DNA of 64,000 nt from a phage. Position 1 is the stretch's first letter, and the number at the start of each line of letters is the position of its first letter. The stretch lies in assembly GCA_014435945.1 (NCBI GenBank), contig GCA_014435945.1_4088.1. One strand, 5' to 3'. Both the position numbers and the translations under genes were made by a program. The notes beneath the pieces were generated by a model. The model made no database searches. It saw only the letters and a list, made by a program, of their open reading frames with translations, and was not told the DNA's origin. Of the stretch, positions 44,344 through 61,297 are shown piece by piece.

Positions 44344-45201
44344 ATGAAACTTTATCTAATCGTTGACTACAGTAAGGGTTATTATGACTACGCAGAAGAA
44401 TCTGAAGGGTATTGCTCGTCTACTAATGTCAATGTACGCACCAGTAATACACATGAGCATGAATCTATTACAAACCTAAAAGATTTCATCGCATATCGAG
44501 CATTTGAAAAGAATTTCTGTCGTAGTAGATATTCGAAGTTTGAGTACCCGTTGATTGATGTTCCTGATGAATTGATGTTCCAGTTAATGCTCACTGGAGT
44601 ACAAGATTATGATTACATCGCGTACAATCACATTACTAAGAAAATTTATATCGGTACGTCAACACATGACATTTCTATGTATGCATCATGCCCGGATGAT
44701 CGAATGAAGGATAGAAATTCACGAAATTCATACAGTAGTGGTTCAGTTGGTTTAAATGATGCATTAAATAAAAATTTATTCTTTGAGTACGAGTTTGATA
44801 ATCATCGAAGGAAAAAAGACCGAGAAGATTATTGTACTGAAATTGATAGTACCAATGGATATGAAGAAGTGAAAGAAGCGTTAATGCCATATATCCTTGA
44901 CAAGTACTACAAAGATTTTCAGTACTGTAGTAATTTTCTAATCCGAAATTCTATCATAATCGGTCGTCAAAGTACTGCATTCTCTAAGTACTACAATGAT
45001 TCCCCTGTTGCTGAAAATGAAAACTGTAATGTTCTCTCAATCCCACGTGAAGATATGGTATTCATGTTCACATCTTTCATTGAAGATGATGAGTTGTATG
45101 TAAAAAACAAGCACAGGTTCATGCCAAGTAAGATTGAGGTTATGAGAAGCTTAAGTGCAGATATCTTAACGAATTTCACTGAAAAAACAGAATACAACTG
45201 A
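44344..45201 (+). CDS. hypothetical protein (285 aa), F2-like
   Basis: Contains DELMFQLMLTGVQD; GGAG RBS. Confidence 0.55.
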   Translation: MKLYLIVDYSKGYYDYAEESEGYCSSTNVNVRTSNTHEHESITNLKDFIAYRAFEKNFCRSRYSKFEYPLIDVPDELMFQLMLTGVQDYDYIAYNHITKKIYIGTSTHDISMYASCPDDRMKDRNSRNSYSSGSVGLNDALNKNLFFEYEFDNHRRKKDREDYCTEIDSTNGYEEVKEALMPYILDKYYKDFQYCSNFLIRNSIIIGRQSTAFSKYYNDSPVAENENCNVLSIPREDMVFMFTSFIEDDELYVKNKHRFMPSKIEVMRSLSADILTNFTEKTEYN

Positions 45202-45230
45202 GACATACCATAAGTTTATGATATAATGTA

Positions 45231-45262
45231 AGGTGACAGCAGAATATGTTGTCACCTTTTTT
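45231..45262 (+). terminator. rho-independent terminator
   Basis: AGGTGACA stem, 11-nt loop, TGTCACCT then TTTTTT; GTGATATAAT-type element sits just upstream at 45219-45227. Confidence 0.65.
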
Positions 45263-45794
45263 AATCCTGAAAGGTTCCATATGGAAATGATTGAAGCCTA
45301 ATCCACTCGAAAAGTAGAGGGTAGATGAGTAGTCCTTTCAGTACGAACAGCAAATGAAACCCGTTAGATGATGGCATAGTTTGAACCACTCACGGCAATG
45401 CGGCTGTATAAAGAACTCCAATAGGATAAAGAGAGTTCCTCGATAGACATATAAGGATCGCACCTTACCAATTATCTAAGGGAGATTTCATGAGAAATTT
45501 GCGGTCGTAATTTATACAATATAGTTGCGTCCAAAATTCGTGAAATCAAATACAAGTACTGGTCATATGGTATTTGTATTATGTGTCGGGATGTTTAAGA
45601 CCGACGACCGTTGCTACAAGAACCGCGATAGAGAGAAACAGAGCAACCCGCTTTCGCCTCGTAAGAGAATTCGTGATATGAACTATGTGAAGGCCACCAG
45701 CGTCAAACTTTTTTTGTTCTTTCCCCTGCGGGGGGATGAAATATGCTCAAGCAAACCCCGTCAATATTAATTAAAACAAATCATAGTACTTTCG
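45263..45794 (+). other. unassigned noncoding island (candidate structured RNA or decayed gene)
   Basis: About 530 bp with no convincing ORF, visibly higher GC than flanks, 12-bp palindrome TTCCATATGGAA near 45273. Confidence 0.3.
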
Positions 45795-45823
45795 TTGAAT
45801 TAGACATGCGAAGCGTGTATAAT
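45795..45823 (+). promoter_or_regulatory. sigma70-like promoter with extended -10
   Basis: TTGAAT 45795-45800, 17-nt spacer, TGtATAAT with hexamer 45818-45823. Confidence 0.6.
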
Positions 45824-45884
45824 TCGACTGGTGTTGATGAAGTCAACGCCATGTACAGTCATTGATGTTTCCATAGGAATAATG

Positions 45885-46427
45885 ATGTCATTTATTAAAA
45901 AATCTAAAAGCGTCACTTATAAAACACTAGAATTTGTTGATTCAGACAATCAGAACCAAGACCAAGAGAATTTTACTGGTTTTGTTGTGATTAAAGAAAA
46001 GGGATGTATTTCGTACATCAAAGAGTTGCAGTGCGGTTTTGAATTAACTTCCATTAAGTTATTCCCAACCAAGAAGCCTACAATTCTTAAAGCTCGTTAT
46101 GGGAACTACTACGAAGAGCGTTATAGTAATAATCTAATCAGTGCGAAAGCACATATCGTCAATGGAGAACTAGAAGGAGAATATAGAAAATTCAACCCAC
46201 AAGGAAAATGTGTTTGGGTTAAATACTTCAATTCAGGAAATGATGTAACATCAGAAATTATTGAGTTTTTAGGTTTAACATGTACCCTTGAAACTCTTCA
46301 TGATTACAAATTTAATACTGAAGAAGAGTTTAATCTGATGATGCGTTATGGATCACATTTTAAATTTTTATATGAATACAACATTGACAGTAGTACTTTT
46401 GATGACATAGTACTTAACTGTCTATAA
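45885..46427 (+). CDS. hypothetical protein with MORN-like repeats
   Basis: AGGA 6 nt before ATG 45885 (ATG 45882 also possible); YxGxxxxG-type repeats e.g. NGELEGEYRKFNPQGKCVWVKYFNSG. Confidence 0.5.
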   Translation: MSFIKKSKSVTYKTLEFVDSDNQNQDQENFTGFVVIKEKGCISYIKELQCGFELTSIKLFPTKKPTILKARYGNYYEERYSNNLISAKAHIVNGELEGEYRKFNPQGKCVWVKYFNSGNDVTSEIIEFLGLTCTLETLHDYKFNTEEEFNLMMRYGSHFKFLYEYNIDSSTFDDIVLNCL

Positions 46428-60553: not shown

Positions 60554-61297
60554 ATGAAACATTTTTTGGAAATTACAGTACCGGATGATAAAGATTTATA
60601 TATCGTTGGTGATTTACACGGCAATGGAAAACTGTGGGATGCTACCAAGAAAGAATTTGGTATCACCAATAATGACTATGTTTTTTGTGTAGGTGATGTT
60701 ATTGACCGTGGTGACCAGAATTCCAAACTACTATTTGAATTCCTTTTCGGTGAAAACCGTTTTATGATTGCTGGGAACCACGAGATCATGTGTGTTGATT
60801 CTGAAACTCACCGTGACTGGCATCACTGTTGGGTACAAAATGGTGGAGATAAGTTCATTGATGAAGTTGGTGAGACAGGTATACAGTTCTTCCGTCAGTA
60901 CTTAAAGGATCTCCCTATGATTATCCAAATCAATCACCGAGGATTGAAGATTGGTCTAGTTCATGCTGGTGTTCCATTGGAATATACCACATGGGAACGT
61001 TTCGTTAGTGGGACAAAATCACTTAGTGCTGATATAATTGAGAAGTGCTTGTGGGACCGTGATACATTCGACTACTGCAAGAAAAATAACACATATTACG
61101 TCCCTAGACTTGATGGCATCCATTGCGTCTTTAGTGGTCATACCGCAGTATCCGACCCACTCATCTACGGTAATCGTATCTGGATTGATAGTCAGTTTTT
61201 AACTGGTGATTTGACTCTTGCAACTCCCCAAAGTGGCGGGATGAGATACTTACGTAAAGAAAAAGATGAGTATTCATTTAACCGCTTCAAAAGGTAA
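60554..61297 (+). CDS. Ser/Thr protein phosphatase (calcineurin-like metallophosphoesterase)
   Basis: GDLHG, GDVIDRGD and GNHE metal-binding motifs in canonical order; start 60554 or 60539. Confidence 0.8.
   Translation: MKHFLEITVPDDKDLYIVGDLHGNGKLWDATKKEFGITNNDYVFCVGDVIDRGDQNSKLLFEFLFGENRFMIAGNHEIMCVDSETHRDWHHCWVQNGGDKFIDEVGETGIQFFRQYLKDLPMIIQINHRGLKIGLVHAGVPLEYTTWERFVSGTKSLSADIIEKCLWDRDTFDYCKKNNTYYVPRLDGIHCVFSGHTAVSDPLIYGNRIWIDSQFLTGDLTLATPQSGGMRYLRKEKDEYSFNRFKR

Follow-up and report, generated by a model that had tools for sequence, protein, structure and literature searches.

A conserved noncoding element of Asteriusvirus DNA as the probable gene for a large, structured RNA of an undescribed family

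The stretch of DNA analyzed here, a window of 64,000 nucleotides (nt), derives from an Asteriusvirus jumbo coliphage and is 99.1% identical to phage Turkey3 and approximately 87% identical to phage 121Q. Between an open reading frame (ORF) of 285 amino acids (aa; 44344–45201) and the next ORF (45831–46427) lies a gap at 45202–45794, which is left without annotation among curated relatives and for which the original prediction had offered three options, namely a structured noncoding RNA (ncRNA), a decayed intron or homing-element remnant, or a regulatory site. Our analysis places a conserved element, slightly narrower than the gap, at approximately 45262–45770 on the + strand, and this element is very likely the gene for a large (approximately 470–520 nt), highly structured ncRNA of an undescribed family. 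The features of the gap are far beyond chance, given the conservation of the element, which is the highest in the locus, and its co-varying helices. The structured-ncRNA option is strongly supported by covariation at 48 of 75 pairs, a pseudoknot, a strand-specific excess of G·U pairs and a dedicated promoter.

Comparison with the syntenic region of related phages, which had been suggested as a check, revealed the element as the best-conserved stretch of its locus. Its identity to phage G17 is 97.3%, compared with 83.6% for the upstream ORF, 81.7% for the downstream ORF and 81.9% for the Dam methylase gene, and conservation ends on the right at approximately 45770, identity to G17 falling from 97% to 83% at position 45771. 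The element is also approximately 71% identical over approximately 500 nt to its counterparts in GAP32, Serratia phage BF and Salmonella phage Munch, in which the flanks give no meaningful DNA alignment and the flanking proteins are 25–43% identical. Judging from these identities, purifying selection acts more strongly here than on the adjoining protein genes, and the element is therefore not a decaying remnant.

The higher guanine-plus-cytosine (GC) content remarked on in the original prediction was borne out, at 0.413 for 45262–45770 against a window mean of 0.338, a level reached by 2.7% of 509-nt windows. Its reading that the gap holds no credible ORF also stands. The longest ORF of the gap has 81 aa and a TTG start (45525–45770), and the longest ORFs of 25 homologous copies vary in strand, position and length (28–91 aa). 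Since no coding frame is shared by these copies in strand, position or frame, nothing in the element is conserved as coding. A small conserved ORF starting from GGGGGGAUGAAA was considered and rejected: its frames vary by copy, and those of one Yersinia copy and of copy 4 in phage TH47 (introduced below) stop after two codons. Some automatic annotations call small "hypothetical protein" genes at these loci.

The fold was derived from 25 non-redundant copies, with helices identified from stacked covarying columns and by eye and then submitted to a formal test. A global RNAalifold prediction on the MAFFT alignment had given a poor fold, with like energies on both strands, and was replaced by covariation analysis with hand curation. 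The tested fold comprises 13 helices, including a pseudoknot, and 75 pairs. Standard pairs occupy 94.7% of 1,818 cells, compared with 77.2% in column shuffles and 36–45% in slid controls, in which the 3' partners were moved by 1–3 columns. Both-side changes were found in 48 of the 75 pairs (315 cells), the covariation score was 0.483 versus 0.169, and none of 500 shuffles equaled any observed measure. G·U cells outnumber A·C cells by 109 to 27 (approximately 4:1), which identifies the + strand as the RNA. The folding z-score is −1.55 for the + strand and −0.07 for the − strand, and most of the helices found by covariation appear independently in the + strand centroid.

Individual helices illustrate how pairing is kept through sequence change. 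Helix P2 occurs as ACAGC/GCTGT, AGTGC/GCACT, TGAGC/GCTCA, TGTGC/GCACA, ATAGC/GCTAT and AGAGC/GCTCT, all with five of five positions paired. The pseudoknot, in which the loop of hairpin P7 pairs with a segment approximately 110 nt downstream, has six of six positions paired in all 25 sequences through five variants (TCATAT/ATATGA, TCATGT/ACATGA, TTGTAT/ATACAA, TCGAAT/ATTCGA and TTATGT/ACATAA). A covariance model that spans 118 positions of the 3' core matches the window once only, at 45589–45707 (107 bits, E ~1e-24), gives four matches in TH47 and none in control loci. Junction sequences are invariant, while whole peripheral arms swap or vanish.

TH47 is a whole, unannotated genome of 352 kb, 98.5% identical to the window. 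A hidden Markov model (HMM) built from seven orthologues and searched with nhmmer found four full-length copies in it, at 49.4, 146.0, 261.9 and 345.5 kb (6, 90, 206 and 302 kb in window orientation), all on the one strand that corresponds to the + strand of the window, which itself holds a single copy. BLAST located four to five matching places per genome in 62–70 phage records, and such numbers recur in GAP32, Serratia phage BF and jumbo phages of Yersinia, Erwinia, Salmonella and Klebsiella. The paralogues have a common conserved core, around which whole hairpin arms are inserted, deleted or relocated. Clustering resolves approximately five paralogue lineages, each common to several genera, which indicates that they are old and individually maintained. 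Synteny of the copies is kept from genus to genus, and they are not variably present.

Beyond deposited phage genomes, 38 metagenomic loci carry the element. A pattern scan of IMG/VR returned 26 loci, all on jumbo-phage-size contigs or fragments, and a search of plasmids returned no copy. Among species-representative genomes there were two true copies, both on phage-like contigs of approximately 200 kb in enterobacterial assemblies, together with four chance matches; the exact pattern used in that scan would miss the bacterial variant described below. Five metagenomic loci (L061, L064, L073, L076 and L079), termed group D, keep only the 3' half, namely a UAAGGGAG-like block, P5, P7, the pseudoknot, P8, GACCGUUG, P9, P11, P10 and the G-run tail, and their 5' half has diverged past HMM recognition. 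The retention of this half marks the 3' core as the ancestral and most constrained part. Group D pseudoknots co-vary as well (TTTGTGT/ACACAAA, CTCATAT/ATATGAG and TTTACGT/ACGTAAA), and the contigs belong to uncultured phages with portal and baseplate-hub genes and a GC content of 41–44%. Two intermediate loci of uncultured phages (L072 and L087) form group E. The 3' part of L073 looks identical to that of L064 in one segment and to that of L061 in another, so that L073 may be a recombinant or a chimeric assembly. The orthologue in Escherichia phage UE-S1 carries an internal partial duplication (HMM positions 2–147, then 93–515), which accounts for a gap approximately 50 bp longer there.

All parts of the RNA described in the following lie on the + strand. 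The 5' domain (45267–45341) is closed by helix P1 (45267–45274/45334–45341), which encloses P1a and P1b and shows both-side changes in seven of its eight pairs. The palindrome TTCCATATGGAA that had caught attention in the original prediction is present at 45275–45286 and is the conserved RNA helix P1a. P1b (45298–45300/45322–45324, 45303–45304/45320–45321 and 45306–45308/45317–45319) carries a conserved GAAAAGUA loop, with six of eight pairs changing on both sides, and an invariant joiner, GAUGAG, occupies 45324–45329. P2 (45347–45351/45403–45407) and P2a (45361–45364/45392–45395) surround a swappable arm at 45367–45391, which other copies exchange or lack as a whole; the invariant blocks GAAACCCGUUAG and CACGGCAAUGCGGC belong to the P2 region (45347–45407). 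P3 (45413–45418/45433–45438), in which all six pairs change on both sides through approximately 13 sequence variants, is separated from P4 (45452–45456/45463–45467) by the invariant GAUAGACAUAU.

The invariant UAAGGGAG (45477–45484) leads to P5 (45484–45489/45542–45547), which closes an optional peripheral module (45494–45539) with a UACAAUAUAG loop; in other paralogues this module sits on P10. P5 was read from the alignment by eye and is proposed rather than proven; examples are GTCAAA/TTTGAC, GTTAAATTT/AAATTTAAC and TTCTGAAT/ATTCAGAA, with short capped hairpins where the module is absent. Hairpin P7 (45549–45559/45570–45580) shows both-side changes in 10 of 11 pairs, and its loop, UCAUAU (45563–45568), is the 5' strand of the pseudoknot. 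The 3' core (45585–45681) is the most conserved part of the RNA. It comprises P8 (45585–45589/45601–45605), followed by the invariant GACCGUUG (45606–45613); P9 (45624–45628/45671–45675); P11 (45631–45635/45651–45655) with an invariant 15-nt loop, AAACAGAGCAACCCG (45636–45650); P10 (45658–45660/45665–45667) with a GUAA tetraloop; and the 3' strand of the pseudoknot, AUAUGA (45676–45681). The P11 loop resembles, in the same sense, the universal segment GAGCGCAACCC of 16S ribosomal RNA (rRNA), a likeness that may be coincidence.

After the core follow repeat R1, CCAGCGUCAA (45697–45706), a U-run (45709–45715) and a conserved 3' tail (45721–45770). The tail contains P12 (CCCC UGC GGGG), which is the GC hairpin CCCCTGCGGGG noticed in the original prediction and present at 45723–45733 as a conserved RNA helix, as well as the invariant GGGGGGAUGAA (45730–45740) and repeat R2, CCCCGUCAA (45756–45764). 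The tail motif occurs four times in the TH47 genome, once per copy; a general promoter motif was ruled out for it, as it is found only inside these four copies.

The two repeats are linked in an unusual manner. R1, of the form YCA(G/U)CGUCAR, stands just before the terminator of the RNA, and R2, of the form YC(C/U)CGUCAR, at the end of the tail; the two are in the same state in 48 of 48 main-family copies, which together display five states, and group D has a sixth, CCA(A)CGAAG, in both R1 and R2. Because the states differ between paralogues of one genome, the coupling acts within each copy. A search for a partner of R1 and R2 found no third alignment column with comparable mutual information, and pairing of CGUC with the invariant GAUG of the 5' domain or tail was rejected, one-sided changes not being compensated. 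The sequences of most paralogues likely allow a local R1 hairpin, GAYGN/NCGUC, which is weak in the window copy. The G-run of 21 of 25 copies has two alternative pairing partners, the C-run (P12) and R2. R1 and R2 are probably twin equivalent sites of recognition or processing.

The copies are accompanied by recurrent transcription signals. G(G/A)(G/A)AC(A/G), a spacer of N11–17 and TGnTATAAT precede 23 of the 25 copies (scan form GRRACR-N11-17-TGnTAhAAT), and in several genera the upstream box reads TGAAACG. By its sequence, this promoter class matches the divergent RpoD-like class with a TGAAACG "−35" described in CBB and GAP32, where it mostly stands before DNA-synthesis genes (PMC5259590). 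It occurs 21 times in TH47, always on the strand of the element, and three of the 21 are at RNA copies. A narrower pattern (TGRRACR, N14–18, TGnTAhAAT) also matched at 61009 of the window and missed the promoter of the RNA copy in the window. In the window, the consensus scan identified a −35-like TGAGACA (45199–45205, + strand), overlapping the stop codon of the upstream ORF, and an extended −10, TGATATAAT, at 45219–45227; the original prediction had this −10 in the correct position but with the wrong letters, since the site reads A-TGATATAAT and not GTGATATAAT. A hairpin with a T-run follows R1 in 27 of 43 copies. A 261-aa ORF with Sigma70_r2 and Sigma70_r3 domains, which indicate that the phage encodes a sigma factor, lies approximately 1.5 kb and two genes upstream of TH47 copy 2 (approximately 204.4–205.2 kb in window orientation). 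Host RNA polymerase would transcribe the element as a unit of its own, probably during the middle phase, because the promoter class of the element is otherwise reported before DNA-synthesis genes.

Comparison with known RNA families indicated that the RNA is new. At the gathering score, Rfam 15 (4,227 covariance models, including those for ROOL, GOLLD, OLE, RNase P, group I and II introns, transfer-messenger RNA (tmRNA), 6S, riboswitches and T-box) returned nothing on the whole window. At E ≤ 10, the window copy gave only two matches to small nucleolar RNA models, at 45135–45206 and thus outside the element, and 11 divergent copies gave none inside the element and no recurring family; group I and II intron models had no match at this threshold in 12 copies. 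ARAGORN detected no transfer RNA (tRNA) or tmRNA, including permuted tmRNA, in the window. The covariance-model scan recommended in the original prediction (Rfam, tRNA and intron models) was thus empty inside the element because the family is absent from Rfam. Full-text literature searches found no description of this RNA family, and a 2023 survey of viral structured RNAs contains motifs of at most 151 nt only. The family is absent from Rfam and from the searchable literature; it is new as a family and by kind nearest to ROOL and GOLLD.

Two further resemblances were discarded. A likeness to RNase P RNA found no model match at E ≤ 10 and no rnpB similarity in a BLAST comparison with 5,426 E. 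coli genomes; the two short M1 RNA-like stretches AGAUGA...ACGA.CAG...AACCCG and ACGACC.GU.GC...AGAGAGC.AACC.GC were unsupported, and the element further differs from RNase P RNA in helix topology, its P1 enclosing only approximately 60 nt. A hammerhead-like CAGAUGAG...GAAAC has an A at the equivalent of the conserved U, and its first two positions vary (UAGAUGAG, CAGUUGAG and ACGAUGAG).

The element is large and phage-borne, with many covariation-supported helices and conserved junctions, and so belongs to the kind known as ornate RNAs. ROOL and GOLLD are large ornate RNAs of phages and prophages, in which cryo-electron microscopy (cryo-EM) has revealed RNA-only homo-oligomeric cages (PMC12286853). 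The element shares with them a comparable size (approximately 500–800 nt), many helices, pseudoknots, long invariant junctions, a location in phages or prophages, freedom from protein-coding frames and modular arms around a conserved core. It differs in having no Rfam match at E ≤ 10, in occurring in phages of Enterobacterales rather than of Bacillota or the rumen, in not lying beside tRNA genes, and in its four to five diverged paralogues per genome, each kept across genera. Another phage-encoded structured RNA is phi29 pRNA, which is approximately 174 nt long, single-copy and encoded at the genome end. Its loop–loop pairing can be intermolecular, and the P7 loop of the element likewise pairs with a downstream segment through letters that differ by paralogue; however, the element has no sequence or model match to pRNA, and its pairing may equally be an intramolecular pseudoknot.

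The genes around the copies are mutually unrelated. In TH47, copy 1 is flanked by two unknown ORFs and situated upstream of Dam methylase; copy 2 comes after the sigma-70-like gene and is followed by a weak HNH_5 ORF; copy 3 is on the opposite strand to a 164-aa Endonuclease-VII/HNH-like ORF, a 340-aa T5orf172/MUG113 ORF and a T4-type baseplate gene and is antisense to both its neighbors; and copy 4 precedes a paralogue of the unknown ORF beside copy 2 (a pair of 210 and 213 aa). Group D copies face a baseplate-hub gene on the opposite strand, and a Yersinia copy adjoins a "phage endonuclease" gene. The nuclease-like ORFs beside several copies are likely free-standing genes; highly conserved RNA genes may serve as homing-endonuclease targets. 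ARAGORN found only four tRNAs in TH47, at 160–165 kb, none of them near the copies, the nearest being approximately 14 kb off. The unrelated neighbors and the antisense copy 3 favor an autonomous RNA gene over a leader.

The family also reaches into bacterial chromosomes. When 5,426 complete E. coli genomes were searched with sensitive BLAST, two chromosomes proved to hold a complete though diverged copy, namely those of LR-29-1 (NZ_AP027515.1, 3478976–3479517) and EEC_W5. The island copy carries the extended −10, all core blocks, the terminator and the tail, scores 111.6 bits with the 3'-core model and lies in a 1.4-kb unannotated gap of an integrative island of approximately 10 kb inserted between ffs and ybaA, with approximately 700 nt of unrelated, unannotated DNA after the RNA. 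The island encodes a tyrosine integrase split by IS3, a serine recombinase, several unknown genes and two candidate defense systems, PDC-M45 (DuOB and DUF488, with an adjacent mSLOG-DUF4326 gene) and PDC-S16 (DUF2188). Similarity between island and phages is confined to the approximately 545 nt of the RNA and is highest, at 80.6%, with the paralogue of Serratia phage BF and Erwinia phages; none of the flanking island proteins is encoded beside phage copies, so the RNA gene moved alone into a conflict locus.

This arrangement recalls ToxI and pseudo-ToxI, where homologous ncRNA genes likewise occur in a bacterial defense locus and in phages, and suggests RNA-level mimicry. ToxI consists of tandem 36-nt repeats processed by its toxin. 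Unlike ToxI, the element is a single fold of 500 nt, universal and multi-copy in phages and very rare in bacteria. It forms no tandem array, having instead a single complex fold, as opposed to type III antitoxins; no toxin gene was identified beside the island copy, and Pfam, PADLOC and PHROGs revealed no ToxN-like families among the island or phage neighbors.

As a working model, the element would act in trans as a folded RNA. The combination of invariant unpaired sequence with a modular periphery is, by analogy, suggestive of ribozymes, of scaffold RNAs of ribonucleoproteins (RNPs) and of ornate RNAs of the ROOL and GOLLD type. One may guess that the element is the RNA subunit or scaffold of a phage RNP or of an RNA-only assembly, in which diverged paralogues would co-assemble or provide dosage, and that the host island copy would act, speculatively, as a captured decoy or mimic in phage–host conflict.

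Several points weigh against these interpretations. The trans-acting RNP, scaffold or ribozyme role draws on general features only. The fold was derived by hand from the same sequences on which it was tested, the column shuffles keep phylogenetic relatedness in and the slid controls remove it, and the thermodynamic z-score of −1.55 is weak. Of the four ncRNAs defined by RNA sequencing (RNA-seq) in the related phage PA5oct, two (ncRNA001 and ncRNA002) were compared, and these are not homologous: they had no nhmmer --max match at E ≤ 100 and no match to the 3'-core model. The literature search found no RNA-seq or transcriptome study of the phage clade, and transcription is predicted from sequence signals. 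The conserved tail of most copies comes after the terminator, a position that sits uneasily with a simple promoter-to-terminator RNA.

Further difficulties concern the orthologue group of the window. Its order is −10, hairpin and RNA (in G17, BF, GAP32, XbC2 and Munch), compared with terminator, promoter and RNA in the other paralogues, so that its only promoter stands upstream of a strong terminator-like hairpin. This hairpin, AAGGTGACAGCAGAATATGTTGTCACCTT with a T-run (45230–45264, + strand), is the terminator of the upstream 285-aa gene; it has a 12-bp stem at 45230–45258 followed by the T-run, close to where the original prediction had placed a terminator. The extended −10 sits 2–3 nt before it, and transcripts would start in or at the base of the hairpin, which may double as a 5' (stabilizing) hairpin of the RNA or as an attenuator. 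After R1, the group has a T-run only, or neither hairpin nor T-run, and thus no canonical terminator. With the promoter before the hairpin and no terminator after R1, the window copy could arise by read-through or processing. Its expression is accordingly less clear than that of its paralogues and could involve read-through, partial termination or a 5' hairpin on the RNA, and its transcript could extend into the downstream operon.

The main rival to a trans-acting RNA, although an unlikely one, is that each copy marks an origin of replication, at which the transcript would form an R-loop near the G6 run and prime the leading strand. There are precedents: ColE1 RNA II is approximately 550 nt long and its folding is needed for hybrid formation, and T4 oriF and oriG are middle-promoter origin transcripts in a phage with multiple origins. 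The element resembles both in being approximately 500 nt long, with its own promoter and G-rich sequence near the 3' end, and resembles the T4 transcripts in its copies dispersed over a T4-like genome and in a promoter class of replication genes, although no sequence similarity between the element and any of them is known. An origin role would fit the four to five dispersed, co-oriented copies per genome of approximately 350 kb, comparable to the multiple origins of T4, as well as the promoter class reported upstream of DNA-synthesis genes. It would also fit the AT-rich DNA after the G-run and the invariant GGGGGG on the non-template strand, which is rare in TH47, occurring at seven loci on that strand, four of them being the copies. 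A cis-acting origin would account for syntenic positions kept across genera, and these phages encode a T4-like replisome (PMC5259590). However, a canonical terminator precedes the G-run in most copies (27 of 43), so that most transcripts would stop short of the proposed hybrid site; the transcripts of ColE1 and T4 differ from the element in this respect. No GC-skew inflection or strand-switch signature was found at the copies, skew tracking the coding strand, and neither iteron arrays nor DnaA boxes were noticed, R1 and R2 being two repeats that differ between paralogues. With its pseudoknot, 13 helices and long invariant junctions, the fold is much more elaborate and conserved than known origin transcripts and goes well beyond what they need, and the E. 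coli island copy has no accompanying replication gene.

A cis-regulatory leader, in which the fold would sense a ligand, a tRNA or a protein and switch the terminator after R1, is quite improbable. The terminator hairpin is embedded between conserved segments, with conservation continuing past it, and the two pairing options of the G-run, with the C-run of P12 or with R2, in 21 of 25 copies recall alternative structures. The window RNA is likely co-transcribed with the downstream operon of a 198-aa ORF, Dam methylase and a nucleotidyltransferase, because its orthologue group lacks a strong terminator, and another copy precedes an adenine methyltransferase in Yersinia phage fHe-Yen9-04. Yet the downstream genes of the paralogues are unrelated and, after copy 3 and the group D copies, on the opposite strand, and beyond the island copy lie 700 nt of unrelated noncoding DNA. 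The gene downstream in the window has its own promoter, TTGAAT-17-TATAAT at 45795–45823, beginning where the original prediction had placed a promoter. At 500 nt, the leader would also exceed all known riboswitches and T-box leaders in size. The regulatory-site option of the original prediction is unlikely to be the main function, as no downstream gene is common to the four paralogues.

The relic of a mobile element, whether a group I or II intron that has degenerated or the target or remnant of a homing endonuclease, surviving as non-functional DNA, is extremely improbable, and the corresponding option of the original prediction found no support. Its attractions are the dispersed, multi-copy occurrence, the nuclease-like and paralogous unknown ORFs beside copies 2–4, the "phage endonuclease" beside the Yersinia copy, the solitary move into a bacterial island and the resemblance of R1 and R2 to target-site duplications. 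Against these stands a constraint stronger than that on the flanking genes, with helices kept by compensatory change, from which it follows that the element is functional and not decaying. No ORF is interrupted, the upstream ORF being closed by a stop codon and a terminator of its own and the next ORF being served by a separate promoter; none of 12 copies matches an intron model at E ≤ 10; one paralogue runs antisense to the genes on either side; and the copies keep syntenic positions in different genera instead of being variably present. The identity of R1 and R2 through six sequence states requires selection rather than historical duplication.

Least credible is a DNA-level element, such as an array of protein-binding sites, a signal for packaging or a site of recombination, or else an overlooked small protein gene: the joint variation of R1 and R2 is indeed what repeated protein-binding sites would show, and some automatic annotations do contain small "hypothetical protein" genes, but compensatory pairs in which G·U outnumbers A·C by 4:1 fit RNA and not duplex DNA sites, the R1/R2 states differ between paralogues of one genome and hence do not follow any one binding protein that the genome encodes, no ORF keeps its position, strand or frame from copy to copy, and indels of 1–2 nt occur inside conserved blocks.

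A large, structured ncRNA gene in these genomes would be of interest beyond the locus itself. Large, highly conserved structured RNAs are rare; nearly all of those that are well understood (rRNA, RNase P and group I and II introns) are catalytic or belong to the core of RNPs, and the few orphan classes, OLE, ROOL and GOLLD, are important targets of structural biology. In its boldest form, which we regard as possible but doubtful, the interpretation would be of a new class of large catalytic or self-assembling RNA, a core multi-paralogue infection component of 350-kb phages that would form a hetero-oligomeric RNA or RNP particle active in genome replication, with R1 and R2 as twin sites recognized in its processing or assembly and the island copy as a captured RNA decoy or trigger directed against these phages. 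The family occurs in cultured coliphages with tractable hosts (121Q, PBECO4, G17 and phAPEC6, among others), its covariation gives a near-complete secondary structure from fewer than 60 sequences, and its loci are blank or filled with spurious small ORFs in 62–70 deposited jumbo-phage genomes. It thus constitutes a testable entry to the RNA functions of giant phages and to possible RNA mimicry in phage–host conflict.

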